Source: Candidatus Omnitrophota bacterium (GTDB lineage: Bacteria > Omnitrophota > Omnitrophia > Omnitrophales > Aquincolibacteriaceae). Taken from it: 64,000 bases of DNA. The stretch is taken from assembly GCA_022711115.1 (NCBI GenBank), contig JAKLFP010000005.1, forward strand, positions 8,572-72,571. Direction: 5' to 3'. The notes under the pieces were generated by a model that did no database searches, was not told the origin of the DNA, and saw nothing but the letters and a program-made list of their open reading frames with translations. The position numbers and the translations under genes are program-made. Positions 6,772 to 62,735 of the stretch are shown here, piece by piece; the first letter of the stretch is position 1, and each line of letters opens with the position of its first letter.

Positions 6772-6842
6772 AAATGAGAAATATGGCAAAAAACAACCGG
6801 GCTGGAAAGCCTTGAACCCTTTTATTTTTTTGCTGGAGCATT

Positions 6843-9679: not shown

Positions 9680-9715
9680 ATTTTTTTGAATGTCATTTAA
9701 AAAGGAGAAAATGTC

Positions 9716-10468
9716 ATGACCTATTTGATTATAGCAGGCATTACTTTTTTGAGTGAATATCTTGATTCCGGCCTTGGCATGGGATACGGGACGGCGCTCG
9801 CGCCGATTCTTATTTTGATGGGATTCGACCCGGTTCAGGTCGTACCGGCAGTGCTTATTTCCCAGCTGTTTACTGACATCGCCGCCTGCATCAGCCATCA
9901 TAAAATGTTCAATGTGGATCTGAAGCCGGGCTCACAGGATTTCAAGGCAGCATCCCTTCTGGGATTGATGAGCGTGATTGGGGTCGTGATCGCTGTTTTT
10001 GTGGCGGTCAAGATTCCAAAAAAGATCCTGACCCTGTATATCGGGTTGCTTGTTGCATCCATGGGAGCACTTGTCCTTTATACGACGAATCGGCCCATGA
10101 AGTTCTCCTGGAAGAAATTGATGGGCATCAGCCTTTTGGCCTCTTTCAATAAAGGTATTTCAGGCGGCGGCTATGGACCGCTTGTGATGGGAGGACAAAT
10201 GCTCTCCGGCGTTCACGTCAAGAGTGCCGTCGGGATTACGGCATTTGCCGAAGCCATTACGTGCCTCGCGGGTTTTCTTATTTATATTATTACAGGAAAG
10301 GCTATTGATTGGAAGTTGACGCTTACTTTGATCATTTTTGCGACAGGGGCTGTGCCGGTTGCGGCCATGACCGTCAAGCACGCTCCTTCCGCATCTTTGA
10401 AAAGGTATGTCGGGATTATGATGCTGCTGCTCGGCTTTCTGACCTTAACCAAAGTTGCCGGATCTTAA
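9716..10468 (+). CDS. TauE/SafE (DUF81) family anion transporter
   Basis: 250 aa with 7-8 TM segments and the internal-repeat glycine motifs typical of TauE/SafE sulfite/sulfonate exporter family proteins. It sits directly after cysNC. Confidence 0.75.
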   Translation: MTYLIIAGITFLSEYLDSGLGMGYGTALAPILILMGFDPVQVVPAVLISQLFTDIAACISHHKMFNVDLKPGSQDFKAASLLGLMSVIGVVIAVFVAVKIPKKILTLYIGLLVASMGALVLYTTNRPMKFSWKKLMGISLLASFNKGISGGGYGPLVMGGQMLSGVHVKSAVGITAFAEAITCLAGFLIYIITGKAIDWKLTLTLIIFATGAVPVAAMTVKHAPSASLKRYVGIMMLLLGFLTLTKVAGS

Positions 10469-10593
10469 AGGCTGCGGAAATTTGGTGTTTCCTGAGGAAA
10501 TCTGACAAGGTCGGACAATGCGATTGAGTACGTCAATTATTTTTGCTACACTGACCCACTCATTTTTTAAAAATAAGCACTAAAGGATTTAAA

Positions 10594-12321: not shown

Positions 12322-12567
12322 GCATGGATCACAAGATGCCATCCGGACATAGCTGTGACCAGCCACCATGCGGTTTACGCCTTATGATGAAAAATGCTAG
12401 ATCTTTTTTTCTTTCAAAAATTTCATTAAAGACTTCGCTTCAAAGTCTTAAAAAAAATATTGCCGGTATGGGTAAAATCCTGCAAACACTGAAGCCGGAC
12501 CGGAAATTTTTATGGGTAAAAATACAACTCTTGATGAAACGAAAATCGAAACAAAACTTTCCATACG

Positions 12568-13800: not shown

Positions 13801-14846
13801 AGGTCGCTTTGGTAAAGACACACAACCAGGTGCGTCTGGATGAGATCAAGACACCTGTGCCGAGTCCGGGTGAGGTTCTGCTTCAAATCGATGCTTGTGG
13901 TGTCTGCGGTAGCGACTATCTTGAGGCGACGGCTTGGGCGCACTCGTGGAAGCGTTTTGGTCATGAAATAGCCGCCACAGTATTTGCTACAGGAAACGGG
14001 GTAGAAGGATTCGCGGTGGGAGATCAAGTGGTTGTGGCGCTCTCTGTTGCTTGTGGGACATGCAAAAGCTGCCTAGCGGGTCATCCAAGACATTGTTCTC
14101 GTCTTATTATTGCAGAGCAAGGCGGTTTTGGAGATTATTTGTTGGTCAAAGATACCCGCCTTTTATTCAAAGTGGAGCCTCGCCTTCCGGTTGAATTAGC
14201 GGTCTTCACAGAGCCTGTTACCGTTGTGTTGGATGCTTTCCATCTTGTTGAATTAAAACCGGAAGATAAATTAGTAGTGATTGGCGGTGGTTTTATCGCC
14301 TGTATCGCTCTTTTGATCGCCAAGATTCTTGGGGTGATCCATCCCTTGGTATTAAGCCGCAAATCTCATCCGCTGCTGGATGCCTGTCTGGCATCGACAG
14401 GAGGGGATTATGTTTCATGGCTTGCAGTGGGAGAACATACGGTGGCAGCGCCAGAGACTTTTGCACAAAAACTCGCAGAACATACAGGACGTGTTGTGGC
14501 CATCCATACAGCTCCCGCCAAGTTCATGCCTCTTTATATTGAAAAATTGCCCTATGATTCTTGTGTCGTGAATTTGGGTTTGTCTGCAAGCGACAAAGAT
14601 AATGAGATGCCATTGGATGCATCGCGGCTTATTTTTAAAAGAATGCAAATTATGAGTGCTTTTCCGGTTCCCTGTCTTTACCTTGCGGAGGCGGTTCATC
14701 TTCTCCAGAAAAATCAGGATTTATTTTCTCTCCTGACCCCTGAAAGTCTTCCTCTCGAGCGGTTACCGGAAGTGATTGCAGCACCCCGGAAATTAAAACG
14801 TAAAATCATGATCGTTTCCCAACCGTCCGGAGGATTACGATCATGA
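13791..14846 (+). CDS. zinc-dependent medium-chain dehydrogenase/reductase (sorbitol/threonine dehydrogenase-like)
   Basis: CGVCGSD and GHE catalytic-zinc motifs, a structural-zinc Cys cluster (CGTCKSC...C) and a GGGFIA Rossmann motif. The start is 13791 (GTG) or 13797 (GTGA overlap with the upstream stop). Confidence 0.75.
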   Translation: MSVKVALVKTHNQVRLDEIKTPVPSPGEVLLQIDACGVCGSDYLEATAWAHSWKRFGHEIAATVFATGNGVEGFAVGDQVVVALSVACGTCKSCLAGHPRHCSRLIIAEQGGFGDYLLVKDTRLLFKVEPRLPVELAVFTEPVTVVLDAFHLVELKPEDKLVVIGGGFIACIALLIAKILGVIHPLVLSRKSHPLLDACLASTGGDYVSWLAVGEHTVAAPETFAQKLAEHTGRVVAIHTAPAKFMPLYIEKLPYDSCVVNLGLSASDKDNEMPLDASRLIFKRMQIMSAFPVPCLYLAEAVHLLQKNQDLFSLLTPESLPLERLPEVIAAPRKLKRKIMIVSQPSGGLRS

Positions 14847-17023
14847 GCTCAAAAGGTTCGCATACCAGGCCTATTTTTATCACCGCAAGGTTTCGAAGCG
14901 GTTCCACCCTTCTCTGGAATCTTTTTCGCAACCTACCGGGTTGCCTTGCTTTTTATGAACCCTGCAATGACCTTCTCACCACTCATATCGAGATAGATAC
15001 CAAACCCCCTCCGTCACATCAGGGAGTGACTTCCTATTGGGACGAGTATCGACCTATATTGGAAGAGTTGCGTTTGCGGTATCGTCAGGAATTCGGTCTG
15101 AACCATTTGTATTTAGAAAACCAGGATACGTATCCTGATTTTGAGAATTATATCCGTTTTTTGCTGAAAGCAGCTTCGGGAAAAGTCCCGGTGCTCCAGT
15201 TTAACCGAATAGATTTTCGTCTGCCATGGCTGCGCGAACGCTTTCCGAATGCATTTATTTTACACCTTACCAGAAATTCCAGAGATATGTGGTTTTCCAT
15301 GATACGAGGTCTCTCGGGTGAATCCTGGCGGGATCCTTTGGAAAACACGAACTATGATCTTTTGCTGTGGTCTGTAGCTCTTTCCAGTGAGTTTCCGTTT
15401 CTGTTTAGTCCTGAAGTTAAAACGACCTATCATCGTCATTATCTTCTCTGGCGGCTCAGTGGGCTCATGGGGACACAGCAAGCTGACATGACGCTGGATT
15501 TTGATCGTGATCTGCTTGGAACCCGGGAGAAGACACTTCAATTAATCACAGATCTTGTGGGAGCTGACAACGCGGAGATCGAACGTCTTGCGAAGCTGGT
15601 GGTCATGCCCGAAACTGGCGGTTGGAGAAAGTTGATCGATGGGCGCTGGTTTACTAAGGCCGAAATGGAATGTGATGCGCTTCTCGAAGAGTTAGGGCTT
15701 TTGGAGGATTTTGGGAAAAAACCGCTTGCAAGCATAAGAAAAAAACATCTTTCAGCATGGAATCATGCGACAGCTGCGGCAACGGAAAGGGTGGCTAAAG
15801 CGTCCGCAAAACTGTTCGGAATGCTGCGACGGGACCGGCTAGTTTTAGGTAAGGATCATGAACAATATGTGATCAATAGTGGAAATGTTATTCGCCATGA
15901 TAAAAAGTTGCTCGAGGATGCCGCTCACCGTTTAAACTCCGTGCAACAAAACTTTCAGGAAGCAGAGGAGTCGTTGCGTCTCAAACAGCAAGCATTTGAA
16001 GAAAGCCAAAAGGTTTTAGCAAACACCCAGACTGCACTTGAAAATAAGAGGCAGGAACTGGTTACGATCAATCAGCGTTATTCGGAGGTGCAGGAACAAT
16101 TACGCGCCAAGCAGCAAGCATTTGAAGAAAGCCAAAAAGTTTTAGCAAGCACCCAGACTGCACTTGAGAATAAGCGGCAGGAGCTGGTTTCGATAAACCA
16201 GCGTTATTCGGAGAAGCAGGAACAATTACGCGTCAATCAGCAAGCATTGGAAGAAAGCCAAAAGGTTTTAGCAAGCACCCAGACTGCGCTTAACAGTAAG
16301 AACCAGGAGTTGGTTGCGATAAATCAGCGTTATTCAGAGACGCAGGAACAATTACGTGTCAATCAGCAAGCATTCGAAGAAAATCAAAAAGTTTTGACGG
16401 GTACGCAGACTGAGCTCAACAGTAAGAGTCAGGAGCTAGCGGCGCTAAGCCAGTGTTTTTCAGAGACGAAGGATCTGTTGCGTGTCAAGCAGCAGGAATT
16501 CGAGGAAAGCCAAAAAGTTTTAGCAAACACCCAGACTGCGCTTGAAATTGAGAGGCAGGAGCTGGTTGCGATAAATCAGCGTTATTCGGAGACGCAGGAA
16601 CAATTACGCGTCAAACAGCAAGCATTTGAAGAAAGCCAAAAAGTTTTAGCAAGTACCCAGACTGCACTTGAAAATAAGAGCCAGGAGTTGGTTGCGATCA
16701 ATCAGCGTTATTCGGAGACGCAGGAACAATTACGTGTCAATCAGCAAGAATTCGAGGAAAGCCAAGAGGCTCTTTCGGATGCGCAAAATGGACTCAATGA
16801 AAAAGAGCGGGAACTCATTTTGATGAAGGAGACTCTTGGAGAAATGCGCCTGGAATTACACAAAGAAAGATCGGAGCTGGAAAATGCGCAAGAAATACTT
16901 ACTAATACAAGAATTATTTTAGCCCAAAATGAACAGATTTTGCGTGAAACCGCGCTTAGGGTTCAGCCGAAGCAATTTTTTCAAAAAAATTTCATAATTA
17001 AAAAAATAAAAAAATTTTTTTAA
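14843..17023 (+). CDS. sulfotransferase-domain protein with long C-terminal coiled-coil repeat region and basic amphipathic C-terminus
   Basis: The N-terminus has the PAPS 5'-phosphosulfate-binding motif (PIFITARFRSGSTLLWNLF) and the 3'-phosphate-binding motif (LHLTRNSRDMWFS). Residues about 378-671 are 7 tandem 42-aa heptad-like repeats (LRxKQQAFEESQKVLAxTQTALENKxQELVxINQRYSExQEQ). The C-terminal tail is KQFFQKNFIIKKIKKFF. ATGA overlap with the upstream gene. Confidence 0.75.
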   Translation: MSSKGSHTRPIFITARFRSGSTLLWNLFRNLPGCLAFYEPCNDLLTTHIEIDTKPPPSHQGVTSYWDEYRPILEELRLRYRQEFGLNHLYLENQDTYPDFENYIRFLLKAASGKVPVLQFNRIDFRLPWLRERFPNAFILHLTRNSRDMWFSMIRGLSGESWRDPLENTNYDLLLWSVALSSEFPFLFSPEVKTTYHRHYLLWRLSGLMGTQQADMTLDFDRDLLGTREKTLQLITDLVGADNAEIERLAKLVVMPETGGWRKLIDGRWFTKAEMECDALLEELGLLEDFGKKPLASIRKKHLSAWNHATAAATERVAKASAKLFGMLRRDRLVLGKDHEQYVINSGNVIRHDKKLLEDAAHRLNSVQQNFQEAEESLRLKQQAFEESQKVLANTQTALENKRQELVTINQRYSEVQEQLRAKQQAFEESQKVLASTQTALENKRQELVSINQRYSEKQEQLRVNQQALEESQKVLASTQTALNSKNQELVAINQRYSETQEQLRVNQQAFEENQKVLTGTQTELNSKSQELAALSQCFSETKDLLRVKQQEFEESQKVLANTQTALEIERQELVAINQRYSETQEQLRVKQQAFEESQKVLASTQTALENKSQELVAINQRYSETQEQLRVNQQEFEESQEALSDAQNGLNEKERELILMKETLGEMRLELHKERSELENAQEILTNTRIILAQNEQILRETALRVQPKQFFQKNFIIKKIKKFF
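15974..16855 (+). repeat. 7 x 126-bp in-frame tandem repeat inside the sulfotransferase gene
   Basis: Repeat units start at 15974, 16100, 16226, 16352, 16478, 16604 and 16730. Long stretches are identical between units (for example caagcatttgaagaaagccaaaa(g/a)gttttagcaa). Confidence 0.85.
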
Positions 17024-17056
17024 ATAACCGGCAATTCATTCCAAGAAAGGAAGAGT

Positions 17057-18790
17057 ATGGAAAACAAAAAAACTACACTTATCGAATTGGCTCTTTCACG
17101 ATTTAATTTCGCATTTAAAAAACCGAACAATTTTTTTGCAATGTTGCTTAGATACTTTTTAAAAGCAAAGAATAGAAATGATGCGATACCGACATTTATT
17201 AATTTAATTCATTCCCAGCATCCTTATGGGATGACAGTCAATGGTGTTGGTGGTCTGCAAGAAGGTGATAAGGGTTTGTATCGCTGGTTTTCAGGAAGTG
17301 AGACAATACTCCGATTCAAGTTGCCTCAGGAAAAAAATATGCAACTCTGTCTGGATTTTTACAACACCTTTCCTAACCAGAGCATATCGGTCATAATCAA
17401 TGGCCATGTCATGGAATCTTTTAATGATATTCATCCCGGGGCCAGAATAAAAAAACGGTACTCTTTTGAGGGGCATGCCAGTAACGAAATCGTACTGCAA
17501 TATAAAAAAACAAATAAATCACTCAAGCTTTATCCTGACGACGCAAGAGATTTAGCGGCAATCTTTTTTGAATTCAAAGTTCTTTTTAGCGATGTAAATG
17601 CGAACCGCCATTTGCAACGATTCGATCTTTCGTCGATTACATATCTTGGATCACCCCTTAAAAACGCTAGGCTGAATCGAGAAGAATATGAGAAGGGGCG
17701 AACGATTCTGAGAAGTCTTCCTTCTGTGGTAACATTAGCCTTGACGACATATTGCAACAATAAGATCCCGTGCCTCATTTGTGACAGGGTTACCCGTAAT
17801 AGGGTCACTGATTGCGACATCAGTGAAGAAATAATTAACAGTGCCAGTCCATTGCTTAAAACCGCGATGTATGTATTATTACATTCTGGTGGGGAGGCGA
17901 TGCTCTCACGACATTATGATAAACTAATAAAAGAAATTAATCCTCCCACACGAGTTTCTTTTGCTACAAACGCCATGCTCATGACGCCTAAACGGGCGGA
18001 TCTGATGCTTGAGAGGGATATTATGGCCGGTATCGTCATATCGTTAGATGCGGCTACGCCGGAGATGTACCGGCTCATGAGGCCAGGTTCGAACTTTGAA
18101 ACCGTGATTAAAAATGTCGCTTATTATATTGACAAGGCTAAAAGTTTAAATCGACATCACTCTAATGTTGATCTTAATATGACGCTTTGCAACTCCAATA
18201 TCATGGATGTCCCTAAACTGGTTGATCTTGCAAAGAAAATTGGTGCCCGCAGCATAAGTTATACTCATCTTAATATCGGGCTTCACCACAAAGTTCAGAC
18301 AGTCGAGGGTTGGGAGTGGGATTATGTCGAACAGATGAATTTTAAAAACAAGGAGCTGCATGACGATTTACTTTTTGAAGCCTATACTACAGCGAAAAAA
18401 AATGGGATAGTCATTTCTCTGCCATCGAATCGTCCCTACATCGGAAAAAACGCAGAAAAATATAATCAGTCAATGCTCAAAACTCCTTGTGAAATTCCTT
18501 TTCAAGAGAGTCAAGGGGTAAAGCATTGGGATTCGCGGTATCATCATAAGATCGCACCCCATATTCCGCTATGTTTTAAGCCTTGGCAGGAAATAGCTAT
18601 TCTCCCGGACGGGGCAACAAGAATTTGTTGCTTCCATGGTAGGGAATTCTACATTGGATATCTTCGGATGAACAATTTTATGAACATTTGGAATTCCGAT
18701 GTAATGGTAGCAACTCGGGAGCAATTTCTGGCTCATGGTGTGGCTCGTGTATGTGTAGAGTCGCAGCCTTGTCCTCACCGCCCGAAGTAA
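17057..18790 (+). CDS. radical SAM-like protein with non-canonical Cx5Cx2C cluster motif and Cys-rich (SPASM/twitch-like) C-terminus
   Basis: TYCNNKIPCLIC followed about 40 aa later by the glycine-rich SAM motif LLHSGGEAML. The C-terminus has CCFHG...CVESQPCPH. About 220 aa of N-terminal domain could not be assigned. Confidence 0.5.
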   Translation: MENKKTTLIELALSRFNFAFKKPNNFFAMLLRYFLKAKNRNDAIPTFINLIHSQHPYGMTVNGVGGLQEGDKGLYRWFSGSETILRFKLPQEKNMQLCLDFYNTFPNQSISVIINGHVMESFNDIHPGARIKKRYSFEGHASNEIVLQYKKTNKSLKLYPDDARDLAAIFFEFKVLFSDVNANRHLQRFDLSSITYLGSPLKNARLNREEYEKGRTILRSLPSVVTLALTTYCNNKIPCLICDRVTRNRVTDCDISEEIINSASPLLKTAMYVLLHSGGEAMLSRHYDKLIKEINPPTRVSFATNAMLMTPKRADLMLERDIMAGIVISLDAATPEMYRLMRPGSNFETVIKNVAYYIDKAKSLNRHHSNVDLNMTLCNSNIMDVPKLVDLAKKIGARSISYTHLNIGLHHKVQTVEGWEWDYVEQMNFKNKELHDDLLFEAYTTAKKNGIVISLPSNRPYIGKNAEKYNQSMLKTPCEIPFQESQGVKHWDSRYHHKIAPHIPLCFKPWQEIAILPDGATRICCFHGREFYIGYLRMNNFMNIWNSDVMVATREQFLAHGVARVCVESQPCPHRPK

Positions 18791-18852
18791 AAAAATAACA
18801 TGATATTTATTTATCAACCCCTGAATTTTGTTTTTAAAATAAAAATTTAATA

Positions 18853-19638
18853 ATGATTAAATTAATACGCCATAATCGTCACCTGATTGCATCGATGGTT
18901 GCGCGCAATCTAAAGGCCCGATTTGCCGGGACTGCCATGGGAATACTCTGGTCATTTTTTTTACCACTCGTCCAGGTTTGTATCTATACCTTTGTATTCT
19001 CTGTCATCATGCATGCCAAAGCCCTTGGAGAATACCAGCATGTGCCGTTTCCGATATGGCTCTGCGCAGGGTTACTTCCTTGGAACATGTTTAGCGAGGG
19101 TTTGGGGATGGCTGTAGGTTCCATTACCGGGAATTCTCACATTGTCAAAAAGACGATGTTTGATAAAAGGATATTACCGCTTTGTTCGGTTATTACCAGT
19201 CTTGTCAACCACGGTATCGCTCTTTCAGTCCTGCTGGTTTTTATGTTGTTTTTCGGAATCCGTCCGGGATGGACCCTTTTGTGTTTGCCCCTAGTGAGCG
19301 TGATCGTGTTCTTATGGACGCTAGCTTGGGCCTATATCGTTGCCGCTTTGAATGTTTTTTTGCGTGATATCAGTCAAATGGTGGGAGTTATTTTAAACTT
19401 TTGTTTTTTTGCAACGCCTATTGTTTATTCTAAGGATCTTGTGCCGCCGGTTTTTGGAATGATTGTCAAAGCAAACCCGTTTTTTTATCTTTTACAAGCG
19501 TACCGAGAGATTATTTTGCTGAACAAGCTGCCCAATATTTTTGAATTATGCGTCGTCACAGCAGGGATCACGCTTTTTCTGTCTGCTGCGGTTTATTTAT
19601 TTAAGATTTTATCGTACGATTTTGCCGACTCTCTTTAG
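18853..19638 (+). CDS. wzm: ABC-2 type polysaccharide export permease (Wzm/TagG family)
   Basis: 261 aa with 6 TM segments. The N-terminus NRHLIASMVARNLKARFAGTAMGILWSFFLPL is characteristic of Wzm/KpsM-type permeases. Confidence 0.8.
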   Translation: MIKLIRHNRHLIASMVARNLKARFAGTAMGILWSFFLPLVQVCIYTFVFSVIMHAKALGEYQHVPFPIWLCAGLLPWNMFSEGLGMAVGSITGNSHIVKKTMFDKRILPLCSVITSLVNHGIALSVLLVFMLFFGIRPGWTLLCLPLVSVIVFLWTLAWAYIVAALNVFLRDISQMVGVILNFCFFATPIVYSKDLVPPVFGMIVKANPFFYLLQAYREIILLNKLPNIFELCVVTAGITLFLSAAVYLFKILSYDFADSL

Positions 19639-19655
19639 ACACGAGAAAGATCGAA

Positions 19656-20978
19656 ATGGAAAATAAAGTACTGATCACGGTGGATGAGATATCGAAAAAA
19701 TACAAATTGTATAATAAGCCGTTTGACCGGTTGAAGGAATTGGCGGATCCCTTCCGGAGGCAATATCATCGTGATTTTTGGGCCCTTCGCGATATTTCTT
19801 TTGAAGTCCGCAGGGGAGAAAGCGTGGGTATTATTGGCGTGAATGGCAGCGGTAAATCCACCCTGCTTCAAATCATCTGCGGGATATTGAAACCCACGAA
19901 AGGTCAGGTGGAGGTCAACGGACGGATTTCAGCGCTCCTGGAGCTTGGGTCGGGATTCAATCCTGAATTGCCCGGCCGTGACAATGTCTATCTGCAAGGG
20001 GCTATGCTGGGATATTCGCCTCAAGAAATGAAAAGAAAATTTAACAAGATAGTAGAATTTGCGGATATCGGTGATTTTTTGGACCAGCCGGTTAAAACAT
20101 ACTCGTCCGGTATGATGATCCGTTTGGCATTCGCAGTGGCGATTCAGATTGATCCCGAAATTTTGATCGTCGACGAAGCCCTTTCCGTGGGAGATGTTTT
20201 TTTTCAGTCGAAATGTTTTCGAAGAATCGAAGAGCTATGCAACAAAGGTGTCACGATCTTATTTGTCTCGCATCAGCTAAGTACGATCCAATCCGTGTGC
20301 CAAAAGGCTATTCTGCTCGACAAGGGAAGGATTGTCTGCCAGGGAGATTCCAGAACCACAGTGGAGGCTTACATCCGTCATATTGCCACGTTGCATGGAG
20401 CCAGGGATATGGCAACGATCCAAGAAGATATACGGATTGAAAAAGAAGTCAAGGAAACGGTCGCCGCGGAAGATCATTCGAAAGACAACCTGGGCGATGA
20501 ACGTTTTTCAGCAACGAATCGTTATGGGACCGGCAAAGCGAGGCTTCTAAAATATGTCGTCAATGATTTGAATAATTGCAAGCAGATAGTGGTTCAATCC
20601 GCGGCTTCTTTAAAGATCCGGTTGACCTATAAAACACATGCGAGGATAGAAAAACCTTTTGTGGCTATTCGTATCAATACTGTTACAGGTGTTCAGATCT
20701 ATGGCAATAATACGACCTTTGCTAACGTTTCTTTGGAGTCTTGTTCAAAAGGAGATGAGATTGAAGTGGAGTTTGAGCAGTATTTGTACCTGAATCAAGG
20801 AAGCTATTTGCTGACATTCGCTTTTGCCGAATGGGGTGAACATGGGAAAGTAATCCATATCGATCGGTTTGTTGATGCGGTTCACATTAATGTAGCCGGC
20901 GGTCCTTATCCCTACGCCGGAATATGTAATTTTCAAGGGAAAGTAACCGTGCTTAATCATACGAAACAGGAGGCATGA
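19656..20978 (+). CDS. wzt: polysaccharide ABC exporter ATP-binding protein with C-terminal glycan-binding domain (Wzt/TagH family)
   Basis: Walker A GVNGSGKSTL, ABC signature YSSGMMIRLAFA and Walker B ILIVDEALSVGD, plus a C-terminal domain of about 190 aa as found in Wzt. Confidence 0.85.
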   Translation: MENKVLITVDEISKKYKLYNKPFDRLKELADPFRRQYHRDFWALRDISFEVRRGESVGIIGVNGSGKSTLLQIICGILKPTKGQVEVNGRISALLELGSGFNPELPGRDNVYLQGAMLGYSPQEMKRKFNKIVEFADIGDFLDQPVKTYSSGMMIRLAFAVAIQIDPEILIVDEALSVGDVFFQSKCFRRIEELCNKGVTILFVSHQLSTIQSVCQKAILLDKGRIVCQGDSRTTVEAYIRHIATLHGARDMATIQEDIRIEKEVKETVAAEDHSKDNLGDERFSATNRYGTGKARLLKYVVNDLNNCKQIVVQSAASLKIRLTYKTHARIEKPFVAIRINTVTGVQIYGNNTTFANVSLESCSKGDEIEVEFEQYLYLNQGSYLLTFAFAEWGEHGKVIHIDRFVDAVHINVAGGPYPYAGICNFQGKVTVLNHTKQEA

Positions 20979-21703
20979 TGGAAAAGGTGGTTTTTACAAG
21001 TATCCCTAAAACTGGAACGCATCTTTTATTGAGATATTTTTATTTTATTAACTTTAAACAAGCTGGACCCTATGCTGTCCCCTTTTTTGACAAAAAATTT
21101 TACGACTTTATCAGAAATTTAAAATCTGGCGAATACAGCGTGTGGCATTATCACTGGAGTGAAGAACTTGCCGCGATCACTCGTGACGTAGGAGCAAAAG
21201 TTGTTTTTCTCTATAGAGATCCCCGTGCCTGGGTCAGTTCTACGCTGCATTGGATCATGCGGTCACCGACAAACCCCCTTCACGAATTATTTGCGAACCA
21301 TTTTAAGACTGATCAGGAAAGAATTGAAGTATTGATCAAGGGTTCGAACAGCGATGCAATTTCCCCTCCAATTCAAAGTATGAATAATTTTTGGCATACC
21401 TACGAGGGATGGCTGTATGAGCCCAATGTTTATAAAGTACGTTTTGAGGACATTATAGGGCCTCGAGGCGGCGGAGATAAAGAAACGCAACTGCGTGTCT
21501 TGGGTGAATTAATGCAATTTACAGGGGTGAGGAATGAATCGGTCACTAAAGAAGAGATTATCGATCAGCTTTTTTCTTCTGAGGTCGAGACGTTCCGAAA
21601 GGGAACTATCGACTCATGGCGTGAGGATTTTACCCCCGAACTCCACGACTTGTTTTTGAAGGAGGCCGGTGAATTGCTTAAAGTCTGGGGATATGCCCCT
21701 TAA
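20975..21703 (+). CDS. sulfotransferase-domain protein (tandem paralog 1)
   Basis: 5'-PSB-like motif TSIPKTGTHLL and 3'-PB-like motif FLYRDPRAWVSS. ATGA overlap with the wzt stop. Confidence 0.65.
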   Translation: MMEKVVFTSIPKTGTHLLLRYFYFINFKQAGPYAVPFFDKKFYDFIRNLKSGEYSVWHYHWSEELAAITRDVGAKVVFLYRDPRAWVSSTLHWIMRSPTNPLHELFANHFKTDQERIEVLIKGSNSDAISPPIQSMNNFWHTYEGWLYEPNVYKVRFEDIIGPRGGGDKETQLRVLGELMQFTGVRNESVTKEEIIDQLFSSEVETFRKGTIDSWREDFTPELHDLFLKEAGELLKVWGYAP

Positions 21704-21820
21704 GGCATGTCAGTAAGACCAGAAAACGATTCATGGGCCTAGGCCACCAGCAAATTTCATGTGGCAACATGGAAATCTTAATTAACAGGGATCATATAAA
21801 AATCGTCTGGAAAGCAGCTG

Positions 21821-22618
21821 ATGGAAAAAGTGCTTTTTGTGAGTATCCCGAAATGCGGAACGCATCTTTTATGGCGATATTTCCCTTTTGTGGGTTTTAA
21901 GTATGAAGGCCCGTACGATGCCGCTTCATTCAAAATAGAATTTTATGATTATGTTCGAAATTTAAAAGAAGGGTTTTACAGCGCCTATCATTTTCTTTTG
22001 ACGGAAGAATTGTCAGAAATCATCAGATCGAATGGCATTAAAACCGTTTTTTTATATCGTGATCCCCGGGCACAAATTTGCTCAAATAAGAATTATATCC
22101 TAAAAACGCCTTCCCACATATTGCATCGGCATTTTACGGAAGATATGACCGATGATGAAGACAGAATCAAACTGCTCATTCAGGGGTTTGATCCCGACAA
22201 GGATAAGCTATACAAAGAGATTTACCAGAAGCCCATGTACCCTATTTCTTTTCGAAAAAAAGGTCCTGATTTTAAATTTCGAGGAGGGATTAACGCGCTT
22301 TATAGTACCTACGCCCCGTGGCTTGAAGCACCCAACTGCTATTGTGTCCGTTTTGAGGATTTGGTGGGTCCTAAGGGCGGAGGCAGCGCTGAGCGACAGT
22401 TGCAAGTCGTTCGTGAATTAATGGATTTCACGGGGACACCTCGTGGAAGATTAGATCCGAAAGAAGTCGCCAATATCCTTTACAATGAAAAGGCAGATAC
22501 GTTTCATAAAGGTCAAATTGATTCGTGGCGGGAAGAATTTACTCCGGAGTTGCACAAAATCTTTATGCGCGAAGCCGGTGAATTACTGAAATATTGGGGC
22601 TATCCAGAGGATGTTTGA
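21821..22618 (+). CDS. sulfotransferase-domain protein (tandem paralog 2)
   Basis: VSIPKCGTHLL and FLYRDPRAQICS motifs. Its C-terminus (DSWREEFTPELHKIFMREAGELLKYWGY) is nearly identical to that of paralog 1. Confidence 0.65.
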   Translation: MEKVLFVSIPKCGTHLLWRYFPFVGFKYEGPYDAASFKIEFYDYVRNLKEGFYSAYHFLLTEELSEIIRSNGIKTVFLYRDPRAQICSNKNYILKTPSHILHRHFTEDMTDDEDRIKLLIQGFDPDKDKLYKEIYQKPMYPISFRKKGPDFKFRGGINALYSTYAPWLEAPNCYCVRFEDLVGPKGGGSAERQLQVVRELMDFTGTPRGRLDPKEVANILYNEKADTFHKGQIDSWREEFTPELHKIFMREAGELLKYWGYPEDV

Positions 22619-22734
22619 GAGTTTTGAGGCCGAAATTTCGGGGGTTTTCTGAGTGAAAATTATCATAAAGTATGTTGACGAAATTTTAAAAAGAAAACTA
22701 TCTGTTTGAGCTTAACGAAGCGGGGAACCATCCA

Positions 22735-24858
22735 GTGATTTCCGGAAATTTAGATTTTTTAAAGGCATTAAAACGGCAAGAAAAATGGTTGTCAGGGATT
22801 GTCTTATGCGGGGTCATTTTTTTAATTTGGTCCTGGGTACATAGCCGTACTTCGATGGTCGCTTGGCAAACACCGCTGCGTTATGAAGGGGGGAAAGATG
22901 TTGCATTCGTTCTAGCTTATGCAAAGGCATTCATGGATGGTGATATTTTCCCTGTTTTGTCTAAGTGGGTGTCGCATCTGAATGCCCCTTTTTCTGCCAA
23001 TTGGAACGACTATCCTGTAACGGATGAATTTATCTACGCAGCCATGGGCTGGATTGGTAAGGGGATAGGCCTTTTCCCAGCGGCTAATCTTATGGTTCTT
23101 TTGGCGCATTTATTGACGGGGCTATCCTTCTACTACGTGGGCAGAAAATTAAAATATCGTCTTGCCTTTGTCTTCGCGGGCGCCGTTCTGTTTACTTTTT
23201 TCCCTTATAGTTTCCCACACAATTTAGTAAATATTATGTATTCCTATTACGGGCATATACCGTTAATGTTGCTAGTGAGCTGGTGGGCCTTTTCATCGAC
23301 GACGCCCCAAATTAAGAGCCGAAAATGGTCCATAGCGGTTGTCATTGCTGCGATCTCGGGCACGTTTAATGTATACTACACAGGAATGTTTCTGCAGTTT
23401 CTCGGATTTACGGTGTTGCTGCATCTTGCCAGGAAGGAGTATCGTCTCATCACCTTTCCCCTATTGTTGATCGGAGTCACTGTGGCTAGTTTTCTAATTA
23501 TGAATGCTGATACTCTAAGCTATACATGGTTTCACGGACAAAACCCTCAAGCCATTGTTCGTAACTTGACATCTTTGGATAAATTTGCCTTAAGGATTCC
23601 CTCACTGGTATTTCCTCAAGATCATCACCGTTGGCATGCTTGGGCTGAATACGGGCAGAGCCATTACTTTATTCCCACAATGATAGAAGGGGAAAAAAAG
23701 GGGGGGTATCTTGGTTTGGTTGGGTTGGCTGGATTGATGTGGCTGACGGGAACAAGTTTGTTTCGCCTCCTCCAAGGTAAGTTGAACCTGATTCCTATAC
23801 ATGCATGGCAAATCCTTTGGGTTTTGCTGTTTTCTCTTGCGGGTGGCATTAATCTTCTTTTAGGGACATTCGGATTTGTTTTATTTCGCTGTACGTTTCG
23901 GTATGGCCTTTTCATATTCGCTCTTGTTTTATTATTCTTAGTACGCCAACTCTCTCGGAAATGTTCCCCCAAATGGACTATACCCTTAGCATGTGGAATT
24001 ATCGTTATTGGCTTATGGGATCAATTACCTCCTAAAGATTCACCGGCCGAAATTCAACGCATAGCTAATTTTATGAAATCTGAACGTAATTTTTCAAAAG
24101 AATTAGAAGCGCAATTACCTCAGGATTCGATGGTATTCCAATTGCCTGTTGTCGCCTTTCCAGAGACTCGCCCCATATATCAGATGACTGATTATGAGCA
24201 TTTTAGACCATATTTGTTTACACGACACCTGCATTACTCTTATGGTACTAATAAGGGCCGGCGTGATGCCGATTGGCAAGTGGTGGTCAATAAATTAACT
24301 CCAGCAGATATGATTGCTAAACTAGAATCTTATGGATTTGGCGCGATTATCATTAACCGCAAGGGATATGAAGACAAAGCTGTACAGTTACTTGAGGGCA
24401 TAGTCGCTACGGGTCGGTCCATCATTGCGGATAACGGTGAATTGGTTGCGATCAAATTAAAGCCTATGGCAAAGCCGATTCTTCCAGAGATACCCCCGTT
24501 TTATAGCACTGGCTGGTCGTTAGATGAGGGCACTCACAGATGGGCCATCTCAAGGCATGCCGAAATCAACATTTTTAATAATGACAAAAAACCAAAGCAG
24601 GTAACTATAAAATTCGCCTTAATCACTTTAAAACCGAGAAATGTACGAATCGGAATTAATGGTACAACATTACAAACTGCCTCGCTAGACAACACTAATG
24701 CAAAGCCATATTTTGAATTGGTATCCGTAACCTTGAATCCTGGTGGAAATTCCTTGTTTATTGATACAGATGTCCCTCCTCAATATCCGGGGAATAATGA
24801 TTCGCGTAAAATATCCTTTGGAATTTCTGGTTTTATGATTAAAGAGTACCAAACATGA
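22735..24858 (+). CDS. large polytopic membrane protein with C-terminal soluble domain (GT-C/YfhO-like architecture), function unknown
   Basis: 707 aa with about 12 TM segments in the first roughly 430 aa, then a soluble domain of about 270 aa. Putative GTG start. Confidence 0.5.
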   Translation: MISGNLDFLKALKRQEKWLSGIVLCGVIFLIWSWVHSRTSMVAWQTPLRYEGGKDVAFVLAYAKAFMDGDIFPVLSKWVSHLNAPFSANWNDYPVTDEFIYAAMGWIGKGIGLFPAANLMVLLAHLLTGLSFYYVGRKLKYRLAFVFAGAVLFTFFPYSFPHNLVNIMYSYYGHIPLMLLVSWWAFSSTTPQIKSRKWSIAVVIAAISGTFNVYYTGMFLQFLGFTVLLHLARKEYRLITFPLLLIGVTVASFLIMNADTLSYTWFHGQNPQAIVRNLTSLDKFALRIPSLVFPQDHHRWHAWAEYGQSHYFIPTMIEGEKKGGYLGLVGLAGLMWLTGTSLFRLLQGKLNLIPIHAWQILWVLLFSLAGGINLLLGTFGFVLFRCTFRYGLFIFALVLLFLVRQLSRKCSPKWTIPLACGIIVIGLWDQLPPKDSPAEIQRIANFMKSERNFSKELEAQLPQDSMVFQLPVVAFPETRPIYQMTDYEHFRPYLFTRHLHYSYGTNKGRRDADWQVVVNKLTPADMIAKLESYGFGAIIINRKGYEDKAVQLLEGIVATGRSIIADNGELVAIKLKPMAKPILPEIPPFYSTGWSLDEGTHRWAISRHAEINIFNNDKKPKQVTIKFALITLKPRNVRIGINGTTLQTASLDNTNAKPYFELVSVTLNPGGNSLFIDTDVPPQYPGNNDSRKISFGISGFMIKEYQT

Positions 24859-58493: not shown

Positions 58494-59849
58494 TCAGCTT
58501 AGATGATCGACCAAATCATTCCAGCTAAAAGAACTTACGGGAACATCCTGGGTAGAAAGTTCAAGCACGAGCAATTTATTATCCGTTTGATAGGGATCTC
58601 CCGTAAGGTTTTTACGGGGGTGGGTAGATTGTTCCAATGCCTGATTTTTGATGAAGCCGAATTTTGTTACCTTGAATACTTGCATCAGATCTGCTAGCAG
58701 ATAATCCCGCGCATCATCGAGGTTCGGATCAATTTTGTGGGTTGTCAGATACCAAGTCTTGGTGGTGAGCCTTACTCCGATATCGCGGCTGATGGTGCCG
58801 ATCCAAACGGGTTTTCCATTGCAACGGATGGGAGTATACCAGAGACGCAGGTGAAGCCGTTGATTGATGGTGTTTCTGGCTTTTTGAAGTGCGATGTCCT
58901 GTGGGTGTCCTTTGTAATAAAGAGGACTCACCGGTGAGTAGCGGTCACTTTCTCCTGTAAAAAAGGCCTTGGCCATGGCAAATCCTGAACCGGCCGTAAG
59001 CGCCTTGGTTTCATCCCAACCGGCTGAGGTGAAAATCGTTATGACGTCTTCAAGTTCCCCAAGCACCACAAGATTAAAGGGATCTCCGTTCTTCGTACCT
59101 TTTTTATTCGTGGTACAGCAAGGGATTTTTTTTAAAAGTTCAGGGATCTGTGCCGTCGAACACTCCGTGACTGTTTCTTCCGGGTAACGATCCTCGTAAT
59201 CCTTTGTCGTGTAGTCAGGTTTGATCCCCGGAACGGTGACTACAAAATCCATTGTTTTGGGGCCTTCGTTGCCAAGGAGTTCTACTTTTACGTGTTTGGT
59301 CCCTTCGTCCACGGAAGTGAAGACGAATCCGGATTCCTTGGACTTTGGCATGATAATATTGCTGGGTAGGGCAACTTTATTAAAAAAAGTGTCCATTTTT
59401 TTATTGTTATAATTAGCCGCAATAAGGTTCACTGGAATGATCGCCAGTGCCGGGAAGAAAATAATTGCGATCAATCCTGCCTCTAAGAGTTGGCGGCTTT
59501 TTTTGAAATGAGCCATATAGGAGGCTTCTTCGGTTGAATAATAATTTGGGTCCATGTTGTGCGGTATGAAAACATAGGGGGTTATTCCTTGATTTTCGAT
59601 CTCAAGCCAGACAGGCTGGATTCCTTTTTTGGCAAGATTGACCCCGAAGGTTTTTTTGCTTTCTTTGTCGCTTAAGACCGTGATGGTTGCGCGGAGGTTA
59701 TCTTTTTCCTGGGTTTGGGCTCGCTGCATGAAGGAACTGCGGTCGGTGATGTTCGGCCGATAGGAGATGCAACCTGAAAAAGACATCGCCAAAATAAGAA
59801 AAGGGACGACTGCTTCTTTTATCCTTTTGATCCGATTTATTCCGGGCAT
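58494..59849 (-). CDS. lipoprotein with LssY-C-terminal-like domain (paralog B)
   Basis: Lipobox FSGC. Co-linear similarity to 45135-46517 over the whole length (QRAQTQEKDN, KNGDP(F/V)NLVV(L/I)G, LHLRLWY(T/S)PIR, THKIDP(N/D)(L/I)D). Confidence 0.55.
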   Translation of the reverse strand: MPGINRIKRIKEAVVPFLILAMSFSGCISYRPNITDRSSFMQRAQTQEKDNLRATITVLSDKESKKTFGVNLAKKGIQPVWLEIENQGITPYVFIPHNMDPNYYSTEEASYMAHFKKSRQLLEAGLIAIIFFPALAIIPVNLIAANYNNKKMDTFFNKVALPSNIIMPKSKESGFVFTSVDEGTKHVKVELLGNEGPKTMDFVVTVPGIKPDYTTKDYEDRYPEETVTECSTAQIPELLKKIPCCTTNKKGTKNGDPFNLVVLGELEDVITIFTSAGWDETKALTAGSGFAMAKAFFTGESDRYSPVSPLYYKGHPQDIALQKARNTINQRLHLRLWYTPIRCNGKPVWIGTISRDIGVRLTTKTWYLTTHKIDPNLDDARDYLLADLMQVFKVTKFGFIKNQALEQSTHPRKNLTGDPYQTDNKLLVLELSTQDVPVSSFSWNDLVDHLS

Positions 59850-59980
59850 GTTTTTAACCGTTTTTTCGAAAGTACCTTTTAGTGGAGTTCAGTAGTATTG
59901 TGTTTTATAATACAAACGTATTAAGAACAACGTCTAATATCTTATCTTCTTTATCAAAATACAAAAAGGGAGATTTTTTC

Positions 59981-60772
59981 ATGAAAAAGATCACTCTGTT
60001 TGCTATATCCTTATTTCTTATCGGTTGCACTACCGTGCCTATTACGGGGCGCAAACAGCTTTCCTTTATCCCTCAGGGGGAATTGCTCACTCTTAGTGAT
60101 CAAAATTACAAACAGGTGCTGAGCCAGTCCAAAATTTCATCGGATGCCAATTGGAGCGCCAAGGTGACAAGTGTCGGGCAAAAGATCGCGGTATCGGCTG
60201 AAACGTTCATGCGTGAAAACGGCATGGAAAAAGAGCTCCAGAATTATCAGTGGGAATTCAGGTTGATCGATGACCCGAAGACTGTGAATGCTTTTTGCAT
60301 GCCGGGCGGGAAGATCGTGGTCTATACGGGAATTTTGCCGGTCGCAAAGGATGAAATTGGTCTCGCAACGGTGATGAGCCACGAGGTTGCGCATGCCATT
60401 GCCAATCACGGCGGCGAGCGTATAAGCCAGCAATTACTTGTTCAATTGGGAGGGATGTCGCTGGAACAGGCCATGAAATCTAAGCCTGCCGCAACTCAAA
60501 AGATCTTGATGCAAGCCTATGGCGCCGGAACGCAAGTCGGTGTTCTTTTGCCTTACAGCCGTTCGCATGAATCTGAAGCCGATCATATTGGTCTTATCCT
60601 GATGGCTCGTGCCGGATATGATCCCGCGAAAGCGGTCGCGTTTTGGGAAAGAATGAATGCTTTGGGCGGGATGAAATCGCCTGAGTTTCTTTCTACCCAT
60701 CCAGCGACCTCGCGCCGGATCGCGGATATCAACAAAGAAGTTCCCGAAGCAGAAAAGTATTATAAAAACTAG
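59981..60772 (+). CDS. M48-family zinc metallopeptidase lipoprotein
   Basis: Lipobox LIGC. HEXXH motif MSHEVAHAIANH and a downstream E (GHESEADHIG), characteristic of the M48/Ste24-like fold. RBS AAGGGAG upstream. Confidence 0.75.
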   Translation: MKKITLFAISLFLIGCTTVPITGRKQLSFIPQGELLTLSDQNYKQVLSQSKISSDANWSAKVTSVGQKIAVSAETFMRENGMEKELQNYQWEFRLIDDPKTVNAFCMPGGKIVVYTGILPVAKDEIGLATVMSHEVAHAIANHGGERISQQLLVQLGGMSLEQAMKSKPAATQKILMQAYGAGTQVGVLLPYSRSHESEADHIGLILMARAGYDPAKAVAFWERMNALGGMKSPEFLSTHPATSRRIADINKEVPEAEKYYKN

Positions 60773-60864
60773 CACGAAATAAAATATGCGGCATGAAGCA
60801 AAAACTTTTTTTGCCGCATAGCGTATGATTTGCGCGTCATGCATTTTAAATTGAGGGAGGCAGT

Positions 60865-62319
60865 ATGAGCGGTATTTACGGAATTATTTCTAAAAAAGAT
60901 TGTATGGATTCCCTGTTTTACGGAACGGATTATCATTCCCATCTTGGAACGGAATTCGGAGGGATTGCTGTGATGGACGGGGATCAGTTCAGCCGGCAGA
61001 TCCATGGCATTGCGCAGAGCCAGTTCAAGTCTAAGTTTTTTGAGGATCTGCCAAACCTGAAGGGGAATAAGGGCATCGGTGTGATCAGTGACTGCCATGA
61101 GCAACCGATCTATTTTAATTCCAAATTCGGGCCGTTTTGCATTGTTACGGTTGGACTCATTGAAAATTCCGAAGAGCTGGTTGAAGAACTTCTTCACCGT
61201 GGGCACTCATTTGCTGAGATGAGCAGCAAGGGGCCCGTCAATACGACCGAACTTATTGCCAAGCTCATTACGCTTGGAGACAACCTCGTTGATGGGATCG
61301 ATCATATGTTTGACATGATCGAAGGCTCTTGTTCGCTTCTAATCCTCAACCGGGACGGGATCTATGCCGCCCGTGACCGGTTTGGTTATACACCGCTTGT
61401 CATTGGAAAACGTGCGGATGCTTATGCGGTGGCTTCCGAAACTTCGGCTTTTCCGAACGATGATTTCAAAATTCTGAAATATCTTGCTCCCGGAGAGATC
61501 CTGCTGCTCAATGAAAACGGTCTTTCGACTCAGAGAGAAGGAAATGCTGAGATGCAGATCTGTACCTTCCTTTGGATCTATACCGGGTTTCCAGCTTCGG
61601 ACTATGAAGGTGTCAACACGGAAGCTTCAAGAGAACGCTGCGGCAGAGCTCTTGCAAGGAAGGATAAGGATATTCAGGTGGATCTGGTTGCAGGCGTCCC
61701 GGATTCCGGGACCAGTCATGCGATTGGGTATGCCATGGAAAGCGGAAAGCCGTTACGACGTCCGCTGGTAAAATATACACCAGGTTATGGGCGCAGCTAT
61801 ACGCCACCTACACAAAGAATTCGTGATCTTGTTGCAAAGATGAAATTGATCCCGATCCGCGAAATCATTGCCGGGAACAGGATTGCGATTTGCGATGATT
61901 CTATTGTTCGTGGGACACAACTCAAGAACTTCACGATTAATAAACTTTGGGAAGCCGGCGCCAAAGAAATTCATGTTCGGCCCGCTTGTCCGCCATTGAT
62001 GTTTCCGTGCAAATTCTGTCTTTCCACGCGCAGTACCCATGAATTGGCCGCACGCAAGGCGATCCGCAGCATTGAGGGCCAGGACGTGGAGGATGTTTCA
62101 GAATATGTGGATCCTGATTCTCCCAAGTATAGGAAAATGGTTGATTGGATTGCAAAAGATCTTGGAGTCACAACACTCCGGTACCAGACTGTGGACGACA
62201 TGGTCGAGGCGATCGGTTTACCGAAAGAAAAATTATGCCTTTATTGCTGGACGGGGGAATGTCCGGTTTCCAAGAAGAAAGAATTTCATAAATCTTGCAA
62301 TGCGTCTGGGAGATCATAA
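60865..62319 (+). CDS. amidophosphoribosyltransferase-like protein (class II glutamine amidotransferase domain + type I PRTase domain) with Ser in place of the N-terminal Cys nucleophile
   Basis: The N-terminus MSGIYGI compares with PurF MCGIVGI. The PRTase PRPP-binding loop is IAICDDSIVRGTQL. C-terminal Cys cluster (CPPLMFPCKFC ... CLYCWTGEC). Strong GAGGGAGG RBS. Confidence 0.7.
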   Translation: MSGIYGIISKKDCMDSLFYGTDYHSHLGTEFGGIAVMDGDQFSRQIHGIAQSQFKSKFFEDLPNLKGNKGIGVISDCHEQPIYFNSKFGPFCIVTVGLIENSEELVEELLHRGHSFAEMSSKGPVNTTELIAKLITLGDNLVDGIDHMFDMIEGSCSLLILNRDGIYAARDRFGYTPLVIGKRADAYAVASETSAFPNDDFKILKYLAPGEILLLNENGLSTQREGNAEMQICTFLWIYTGFPASDYEGVNTEASRERCGRALARKDKDIQVDLVAGVPDSGTSHAIGYAMESGKPLRRPLVKYTPGYGRSYTPPTQRIRDLVAKMKLIPIREIIAGNRIAICDDSIVRGTQLKNFTINKLWEAGAKEIHVRPACPPLMFPCKFCLSTRSTHELAARKAIRSIEGQDVEDVSEYVDPDSPKYRKMVDWIAKDLGVTTLRYQTVDDMVEAIGLPKEKLCLYCWTGECPVSKKKEFHKSCNASGRS

Positions 62320-62345: not shown

Positions 62346-62735
62346 ATGGAGCGTAAGATCGCGTCAAGTTTCTTGTTGATTATTTTCATGCTTATGATCC
62401 TGTTCGGACCGGTTCAGGCGGCAGAAGATGCGGTTTCTCCGGGGACTCAAGCTTCTTCCCAAGCTTTAAACGAACAAGTTTCTTCTCAGAGTTTAGGCGC
62501 ACAAGCCGGGGAAACCGCCAAAGAATTAAAAGATAAAGCTGAAGTGGCTAGTGTCAAAGTTGCTGAGGCATCCAAAAAAGTTGAAGCGGAAGCCCAGGAT
62601 CTCTTTAAGGATCTTCAAAAACAATGGGATGAATTTGCCAAGCGGTTCCAGGCATCGCTCCAACAGCTATCCGTTCAAATGAAACAGCAGGAAGAAGATT
62701 TCAAAAAATCCTTCAATAAACCGCCCAAGTCTTAG
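62346..62735 (+). CDS. small secreted hypothetical protein
   Basis: Signal peptide (FLLIIFMLMILFGPVQA) followed by a charged helical region. RBS AAAGGAAA. Confidence 0.45.
   Translation: MERKIASSFLLIIFMLMILFGPVQAAEDAVSPGTQASSQALNEQVSSQSLGAQAGETAKELKDKAEVASVKVAEASKKVEAEAQDLFKDLQKQWDEFAKRFQASLQQLSVQMKQQEEDFKKSFNKPPKS

Follow-up and report, generated by a model that had tools for sequence, protein, structure and literature searches.

Can a PurF-like protein that begins with serine in place of the N-terminal cysteine still catalyse the first step of purine synthesis, and with what source of nitrogen? This question is raised by a gene at positions 60865–62319 of a 64,000-nt stretch from a Candidatus Omnitrophota bacterium (assembly GCA_022711115.1, contig JAKLFP010000005.1; G+C 46.2%), the whole of which is called the window below. 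Canonical PurF (amidophosphoribosyltransferase, EC 2.4.2.14) carries out the committed, regulated step of de novo purine synthesis, and is a textbook N-terminal nucleophile (Ntn) amidotransferase with an ammonia channel. From the comparisons presented here, the gene appears to belong to a natural lineage of PurF whose glutaminase domain is dead and which is mis-filed with canonical PurF, and the chemistry proposed for it has a laboratory precedent. On balance, the sequence evidence leans towards its product being an ammonia-dependent phosphoribosylamine synthase isozyme.

The gene lies on the plus strand, as do all of its features given below, and encodes 484 aa plus a stop codon from a start placed at 60865 in the open reading frame (ORF) list. 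The N-terminus of the product, MSGIYGIISKKDC, begins MSGIYGI, and the ORF directly follows a strong ribosome-binding site (RBS), GAGGGAGG at 60853–60860, 4 nt 5′ of the ATG, as the original prediction had remarked. Codon 2 (60868–60870) is AGC and encodes Ser where the Ntn nucleophile Cys1 would stand; in the alignments, residue 2 pairs with Cys1 of both B. subtilis and E. coli PurF. An upstream start yielding a propeptide that ends in Cys, which had been named as one finding that could overturn this assignment, is excluded, since an in-frame TAA at 60847–60849, 18 nt 5′ of the start codon, makes such a propeptide or any longer N-terminus impossible. The protein comprises an N-terminal Ntn-type (class II amidotransferase-like) domain (N-domain; residues 1–230, 60865–61554; Pfam GATase_7, 3e-14), the catalytic residues of which are lost, a type I phosphoribosyltransferase (PRTase) domain (residues 231–465, 61555–62259, from the full-length PurF alignment) and a variable C-terminal tail (residues 466–484, 62260–62316) with a mean column identity of 0.22, which is predicted to be disordered.

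AGC is one base away from TGC, and the original prediction had allowed for a single-base sequencing error at this codon. That explanation, or that of a decaying purF pseudogene, now has a probability close to nil, being ruled out by the homologues, the codon data and the purifying selection. Among the 120 closest database homologues (71–100% identity), which come from independent assemblies, 118 start with [MV]SG and the other two with MPGIKNGG and LWYNAGLQ; those that are named are nearly all from Omnitrophota, with a few from Planctomycetota, one Makaraimicrobium and one Aureabacteria. The 83%-identical orthologue at locus L001, in the metagenome-assembled genome (MAG) GCA_022709525.1, also has AGC at codon 2 despite saturated synonymous sites. 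Between these two genes the proportion of non-synonymous differences (pN) is 0.12 in the N-domain and 0.08 in the PRTase domain, far under the saturated synonymous value (pS, 0.76–0.82), and both domains are under purifying selection. In 84 gene starts of the family (fetched loci plus the window), codon 2 is AGC in 33, AGT in 7, TCT in 1, GGN in 42 and ACT in 1, so that nearly all are one step away from the cysteine codons TGY. The gene also departs from canonical PurF at four more catalytic positions and by two indels, the ORF is intact behind its strong RBS, and the family is found in at least 600 species.

Sequence alignment (MAFFT and HMMER) of the query with E. coli PurF, two canonical Omnitrophota PurFs and family members, with canonical residues numbered as in E. 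coli, places these changes around the glutamine site. In addition to Cys1 being Ser, the canonical LQHRGQE is replaced by the family motif DYHSHLGT (residues 22–29, 60928–60951), in which Arg26 has become Leu. The ‘glutamine loop’ is shortened to GIGVISDCHEQP (residues 70–81, 61072–61107; from HMMER against 1gph and MAFFT against canonical PurFs), GHVRYSTTGSS...QP being converted into GVI--------SDCHEQP, with Arg73/Tyr74 replaced by Ser75/Asp76 and eight residues including Thr76 deleted. The oxyanion-hole motif HNGNLxN reads VTVGLIEN (residues 95–102, 61147–61167), in which Asn101 corresponds to Val96 (query numbering) and Gly102 is retained (AHNGNL to VTVGLI), and Asp127 is replaced by Asn/Thr, with TSD-SE giving way to a 6-aa insertion plus VNTTE. 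This pattern of replacement is present in 39 of the 39 family representatives examined. All residues needed for binding and hydrolysing glutamine thus appear to be lost from a scaffold that seems to be still folded and selected, and the query is predicted to be without glutaminase activity. Being conserved in the family, the changes (R26L, R73S/Y74D plus the 8-aa deletion, N101V, and D127 to N/T) support the loss of glutamine hydrolysis that had been suggested from codon 2.

Could the serine itself act as the nucleophile, as in Ntn hydrolases of the penicillin acylase type? The query does not conform to that class, in that Ser is conserved in one subclade only and the oxyanion residue Asn101 is Val. 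Representatives at 50% identity reveal a wider family with N-termini of the form M[SGTA]G[IVLF][FY]G followed by a conserved FYGTDYHSHLGT; in 39 such representatives position 2 is Ser in 19, Gly in 13, Thr in 3, and Ala, Val, Lys or Ile in one each. The occurrence of Gly, Thr and Ala at this position argues against Ser as a substitute nucleophile, and the family as a whole has no conserved nucleophile there.

The other half of the protein has been kept. In an alignment of 34 family sequences (A1), on which our statements of invariance and of at least 90% conservation are based, the invariant residues fall mostly within the PRTase domain. The catalytic flexible loop KYTPGYGRSYTPPTQRIR (residues 303–320, 61771–61824) is equivalent to E. 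coli residues 326–343 (KNRYVGRTF..P.Q..R); K303, R310, S311 and R320, together with K327, are invariant, and P314 and Q317 are conserved to at least 90%. The loop that binds 5-phosphoribosyl 1-pyrophosphate (PRPP), IAICDDSIVRGTQL (residues 340–353, 61882–61923), aligns with the canonical DDSIVRGTT and reads CDDSIVRGTQL in the query, with D345, S346, R349 and Q352 invariant. The four predicted [4Fe-4S] ligands align with those of the B. subtilis enzyme: Cys233 (61561–61563; invariant) with Cys236, Cys382 (62008–62010; at least 90%) with Cys382, and Cys458-x-x-Cys461 (62236–62247; at least 90%) with Cys437/Cys440. The original description of the PRTase loop and of the C-terminal Cys cluster as intact therefore holds, and the PRPP site, the flexible loop and the [4Fe-4S] site all appear to be intact.

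The overall architecture is likewise that of PurF. The best relative in the Protein Data Bank is the B. subtilis [4Fe-4S] PurF (1gph/1ao0, E 7e-60; about 30% identity across the full length), followed by the Arabidopsis and E. coli enzymes. An AlphaFold2 model of the query, with a predicted local distance difference test score (pLDDT) of 91.6 that falls below 50 only in residues 469–484, superimposes over its whole length on the B. subtilis, Arabidopsis and E. coli PurFs with template-modelling (TM) scores of 0.80–0.85 (Foldseek E 5e-42 to 1ao0); in this model the two-domain fold, Ntn alpha-beta-beta-alpha plus PRTase, is preserved. The sequence models respond less fully: the class II amidotransferase domain is all that Pfam recognises in the query, and NCBIfam TIGR01134 (purF) covers residues 3–465 with 217.5 bits, under its equivalog cutoff of 350. 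A family-specific insertion of about 25–26 residues (399–423, 62059–62133; from MAFFT), absent in canonical PurF and conserved inside the Ser clade, lies in the C-terminal domain, and further indels are RGTQL for RGTT, one additional residue in the flexible loop, and the 6-aa insertion before the former D127. Thus, judged as a canonical PurF, the query lacks the nucleophile Cys and the glutamine-site residues and stays under the TIGR01134 cutoff, and it does possess the PRPP and flexible loops, the two-domain fold and the four cysteines.

The low score (217 versus 350 bits), the family indels (RGTQL, the +1 flexible loop and the insertion of about 26 aa) and the lack of pur linkage at most loci could also mean that the enzyme transfers the phosphoribosyl group of PRPP to some acceptor that is not ammonia, outside purine synthesis. 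We consider this quite improbable: such linkage as exists is to pur genes, with the gene at the purF slot (see below), the PurF-specific residues of the flexible loop are kept, and no alternative pathway context recurs.

In the mechanism that we favour, PRPP-Mg would be bound in the PRTase site and the flexible loop would close over it as in canonical PurF, upon which free NH3, not derived from glutamine, would attack C1 of PRPP to give 5-phosphoribosylamine and pyrophosphate. With the glutamine loop truncated, the former glutamine pocket and the channel would stay open and act as a funnel through which NH3 enters. The N-domain would have been retained because one half of the closed active site and of the channel, as well as the oligomer interface, is built from it. 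Such a glutamine-independent isozyme for the first purine step would spare glutamine, as well as the ATP used by glutamine synthetase, in ammonia-rich, energy-limited anaerobic habitats. In some lineages it may work alongside canonical PurF, and in others it may take its place in the pur operon. Such savings of glutamine and ATP would suit the carriers, most of which live in anaerobic, ammonia-rich places (gut, sediments and digesters), and an O2-labile cluster is in keeping with this setting.

The first-position change has already been made in the laboratory. According to the account of Mei & Zalkin (1989) given in PMC3261824, E. coli PurF with C1S or C1A had lost its glutamine-dependent activity and had kept its NH3-dependent activity; the query carries the same change, and these mutants, as described there, are the functional precedent for the proposed mechanism. 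They are, however, single-site laboratory mutants in that account, whereas the Cys-less family appears to be natural, ancient and selected, with the whole glutamine site remodelled. The same article describes a Ser-containing PurF paralogue in a methanogen, Mlab_0150, which shares its genome with a canonical purF and the function of which its authors left open (PMC3261824). In their account it arose by recent duplication and most resembles the purF of its own organism (PMC3261824); compared by description only, the present family differs in being an old, separate clade with motifs and indels of its own.

The N-domain has not simply been worn down. Several new polar residues stand out by their family conservation, namely Cys13 (60901–60903), D22–H26 (60928–60942) and S75–D76 (61087–61092): in A1, Y23 and H26 are invariant, D22, S75, Q80 and P81 are conserved to at least 90%, and C13, H24 and D76 to at least 70%, with C13 reaching at least 97% within the Ser clade. 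In that clade the mean column identity is 0.69 for the N-domain and 0.82 for the PRTase domain, and long motifs of the N-domain reach a conservation of at least 97%. From this conservation, C13, D22–H26 and S75–D76 possibly form a metal- or ligand-binding constellation and would not be the product of neutral decay. A tentative extension of our reading, to which we give a distinctly lower probability, is that of a glutamine-independent purine entry enzyme whose rebuilt N-domain has become a new nitrogen-entry or sensing module; Cys13, Asp22, Tyr23, His24, His26, Ser75 and Asp76, with the truncated loop, would then serve as an ammonia funnel or as a docking site for a CarB- or PurQ-like partner.

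A further alternative, which seems unlikely to us, goes beyond free ammonia: C13, D22-Y23-H24-x-H26 and S75-D76, plus Ser1 in the subclade of the query, would draw nitrogen from a donor other than glutamine (another amide, carbamate, carbamoyl phosphate, or NH3 from PurQ or a class I glutamine amidotransferase), or would sense a regulatory ligand, and so feed or control the PRTase site. The new invariant polar residues at the former glutamine site, the Ser found in 118 of the 120 closest homologues, and the carB genes next to the family gene (6 loci, with no adjacent carA in the four inspected closely), the class I amidotransferase in L093–L096 and the purQ in L026 are all consistent with it. 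However, Gly or Ala occupies position 2 in much of the family, so that Ntn-type nucleophilic catalysis is not a family trait, and the carB, amidotransferase and purQ neighbours are neither conserved in the family nor present in the window.

How widespread is this protein, and is it merely the PurF of one phylum? We scanned one genome per species of the Genome Taxonomy Database with motif patterns derived from A1; the at least 600 species so found are mostly anaerobic bacteria and archaea. The best 80 loci come from Omnitrophota, Planctomycetota, Elusimicrobiota, Thermodesulfobacteriota/Syntrophia, Gemmatimonadota, Acidobacteriota, Aminicenantes, Spirochaetes, Bacteroidales, Clostridia, Verrucomicrobiota, Lentisphaerae and Anaerolineae, and their archaeal members include Altiarchaeota, Methanobacteriota, Thermoplasmatota and Asgard lineages. 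The family is recognized by a small non-Cys residue at position 2 with G-x-[FY]-G and by G-[TV]-D-Y-[HN]-x-H-[LM]-[GA], for which the query reads MSGIYGI...YGTDYHSHLGT. A second signature consists of [DE]-D-S-[IL]-V-R-G-T-Q, the Gln loop G-I-G-x-I-S-D-x-[DE]-x-Q-P and the C-terminal insertion of about 26 aa, all three of which are found in the query and in the Omnitrophota and gut Firmicutes members. In a neighbour-joining tree the family forms one clade apart from the canonical Cys/Arg26 PurFs, with the Ser subclade of the query nested with a Gly subclade. The paralogue family is ancient, and the databases file it with canonical PurF: none of the Pfam and NCBIfam models separates it from PurF, and all sources that name its proteins use ‘amidophosphoribosyltransferase’.

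Among the representatives, a second, separate clade of PurF-like proteins without the N-terminal Cys was also seen (P0204, P0215, P0232, P0241, P0243, P0257, P0261 and P0268). Most of its members start with MAGLxGLS or a variant of it (MSGLFGIS, MNGLFGMS, MGAFVAES); Arg26 is missing in most, and an acidic D/E is found at the Asp127 position in most. From these sequences, loss of the nucleophile may have occurred more than once in the PurF superfamily.

Genomic context provides the connection with purines. We compared about 84 distinct loci (labelled L001 and so on) over 10 kb on either side of the gene, and pur genes were linked to it in about 10 of them, including the Omnitrophota loci L021, L025 and L026, the proteins of which are 62–70% identical to the query. 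In human-gut Oscillospiraceae a Gly-type member (X) occupies the purF slot of purE-purC-X-purM-purN-purO-purH-purD-purL and is the only purF-like gene in that operon, as judged at the locus; its relatives are named Dysosmobacter, Lawsonibacter and Ruminococcaceae, and its 90%-identity cluster holds 3295 sequences. The family gene follows purL in Muribaculaceae. The Omnitrophota loci L025 and L026 have the order purL(-purQ)-X-purM..purD-purE, with X again the only purF-like gene in the locus and, in L026, purQ immediately 5′ of it, and L021 has the tandem purL-purQ-purF(canonical)-X-purM. Other Omnitrophota carry canonical purF in the same slot, in purB-purL-purQ-purF-purM-purD-purE. The Cys-less gene and canonical purF can thus share or swap one operon slot, and the family appears to be genomically wired into purine biosynthesis.

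Canonical PurF is common across Omnitrophota, and in the Omnitrophota MAG GCA_016783385.1 the Ser-type gene lies on contig 48 and a canonical purF-purM-purD-purE cluster on contig 17. Since both genes occur in Omnitrophota, the Cys-less one is a paralogue and not simply the version of PurF used by this phylum. In five phyla the direct neighbour of the family gene is a canonical purF (L016 of Phycisphaerae, L021 of Omnitrophota, L085 of Anaerolineae, and L040 and L072 of two Asgard archaea), and these neighbouring canonical PurFs carry a propeptide plus Cys, LQHRGQES, GHxRYSTTG and AHNGNL. The original prediction had offered NH3 dependence, a different substrate or a regulatory role as the consequence of the serine; the tie to purine synthesis favours the first of these by inference, and the other two keep the standing of rivals.

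The regulatory option deserves a closer look here. Canonical PurF is normally a homodimer or homotetramer, and the Cys-less protein could be a partner subunit that forms a hetero-oligomer with it and tunes its regulation, stability or channelling, with little or no catalysis of its own. The N-domain is highly conserved though catalytically dead, GCA_016783385.1 holds both genes in a phylum where canonical PurF is common, and the direct adjacency to canonical purF in five phyla fits this idea just as well as it fits an isozyme. We nonetheless assign a partner role a low probability: all catalytic residues of the PRTase domain and the flexible loop are invariant, a constraint not expected of a subunit without catalysis, the Cys-less gene is the sole purF-like gene in several pur operons, and most loci have no canonical purF within 10 kb, nor does the window within 60 kb upstream of the gene.

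Besides that adjacency, several observations weigh against an ammonia-dependent purine isozyme. About 74 of the 84 distinct loci are without pur linkage, and the status of sole purF-like gene was seen at the level of the locus or operon. In the 64-kb window itself, phmmer searches with the query, which finds only itself, and with nine pur-operon proteins returned no other pur gene, so that the search for a canonical purF advised in the original prediction gave none within the window. The conserved new polar residues of the N-domain seem to exceed what a passive scaffold would need, which hints at a ligand or catalytic role beyond the use of free NH3. Finally, full-text searches of open-access papers yielded the remark on Mlab_0150 and the C1S/C1A mutant data, and no characterisation of a Cys-less PurF family.

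Some loci place the gene near other genes of nitrogen metabolism. It adjoins carB in 6 loci from Omnitrophota, Lentisphaerae and Desulfobacterales (L014 11480–14713; L043 6739–9993; L052 6288–9506; L067 6139–9363 on the minus strand; L068 about 6747–9577; L071 10320–13532), and no carA is adjacent to carB in the four of these inspected closely (L014, L043, L052 and L071). The association may stem from joint regulation of nucleotide synthesis or from a functional link. The Desulfobacteraceae locus L071 (6487–16780) is a nitrogen-assimilation neighbourhood with the order gdh, a 163-aa ORF (weak RAMA hit), X, carB, glnA and a GAF/sigma-54 activator; the family gene lies within about 1 kb 3′ of gdh, and carB, glnA and the activator directly follow it.

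Two further sets of neighbours were noted. A DUF1846/UPF0371 protein is encoded next to the Cys-less gene in 4 loci from 4 phyla, in varying orientation (L014 8456–9979, Omnitrophota; L015 11633–13231, minus strand, Pirellulales; L048 5941–7659, minus strand, Vicinamibacterales; L088 3130–4602, minus strand, Treponema). L093–L096 (6953–9974) are copies of one locus, from MAG GCA_016783385.1 and from three metagenomes. Encoded upstream in it are an AlaDh/PNT-like dehydrogenase, a YheCD-type ATP-grasp enzyme and a small class I glutamine amidotransferase (PF00117, about 200 aa), and the amidotransferase gene ends 27 nt 5′ of the Ser-type gene. As this arrangement is seen in L093–L096 only and does not recur elsewhere, a class I glutaminase was rejected as a conserved partner.

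In the window, the 5′ neighbours of the gene encode a phosphofructokinase, a hydrolase, two Na+ symporters, an LssY_C protein and an M48 peptidase, and the 3′ neighbour a small secreted protein. The order LssY_C (minus strand), M48 peptidase, purF-like gene, small secreted protein (58494–60772 and 62346–62735) is syntenic with the closest relatives L001–L003, which have an extra DUF1570 gene just 3′ of the purF-like gene that the window lacks; this synteny contains nothing functional, and L004–L006 do not share the neighbourhood. Orthology of the window M48 and L001 DUF1570 genes to genes flanking Omnitrophota pur clusters was considered and rejected, the identities of 28% and 23% being too weak. 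The spacer that separates the M48 peptidase gene from the purF-like gene contains a perfect inverted repeat of 8 bp, ATGCGGCA...TGCCGCAT (60786–60819), the loop of which is 18 nt long and A/T-rich; this repeat was not called by the terminator scan and has no Rfam family match. An Rfam search of the whole window found zero families at the gathering threshold, with no match to a riboswitch or other RNA element upstream of the gene, and promoter and terminator scans did not rise above the shuffled expectation.

Elsewhere in the window, positions 6843–24858 hold a sulfation and glycan-export gene cluster, the content of which suggests synthesis of a sulfated surface polysaccharide. It encodes a CysD-like PAPS_reduct protein (6843–7748), a CysN GTPase-APS kinase fusion (7748–9679), a TauE exporter, a B12-binding radical SAM enzyme, a GT4 glycosyltransferase, two sulfotransferase-domain proteins, a SPASM radical SAM enzyme and a Wzm/Wzt ABC-2 exporter.

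When placed among known systems, the query is closest to PurF of the B. subtilis type (EC 2.4.2.14; 1AO0/1GPH; TIGR01134), with which it shares the architecture, the PRPP loop, the flexible loop, the cluster cysteines and, through some of its orthologues, the pur-operon context; it differs in having no N-terminal Cys and in the replacement or deletion of R26, R73, Y74, T76, N101 and D127. Pairs of ammonia- and glutamine-dependent enzymes are familiar from AsnA versus AsnB and from the NH3-dependent versus the glutamine-dependent NadE, and they follow the same logic of a glutamine-independent isozyme where ammonia is plentiful. In AsnA and NadE, however, the glutaminase domain is missing or the fold is another one, whereas the Cys-less family keeps a conserved dead domain.

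Retention of such a domain has a parallel in the herpesviral vGATs, homologues of PFAS, which according to the review PMC7605207 are likewise conserved amidotransferase homologues without glutaminase catalysis. The vGATs described there are non-enzymatic partners of cellular enzymes, whereas the PRTase half of the query looks fully catalytic.

The breadth of the family, its coexistence and slot-swapping with canonical purF, and its conserved remodelled N-domain call for an explanation and are directly testable. If the reading with a rebuilt N-domain is true, many anaerobes would enter purine synthesis with a nitrogen source and a regulation that depart from the textbook. If a widespread natural variant has given up glutamine hydrolysis and kept the scaffold, metabolic models would have to assume another nitrogen donor and ATP cost for many anaerobes, including dominant gut taxa (Oscillospiraceae and Bacteroidales) and candidate phyla such as Omnitrophota. 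Annotation pipelines give both paralogues one name and one EC number, which would then need correction. The family would also let nature's own variation show which roles, beyond the supply of NH3, fall to the glutaminase domain and channel, such as interdomain signalling, oligomerisation or feedback control, and it would raise the testable question of why many genomes keep both versions of the enzyme, sometimes side by side.

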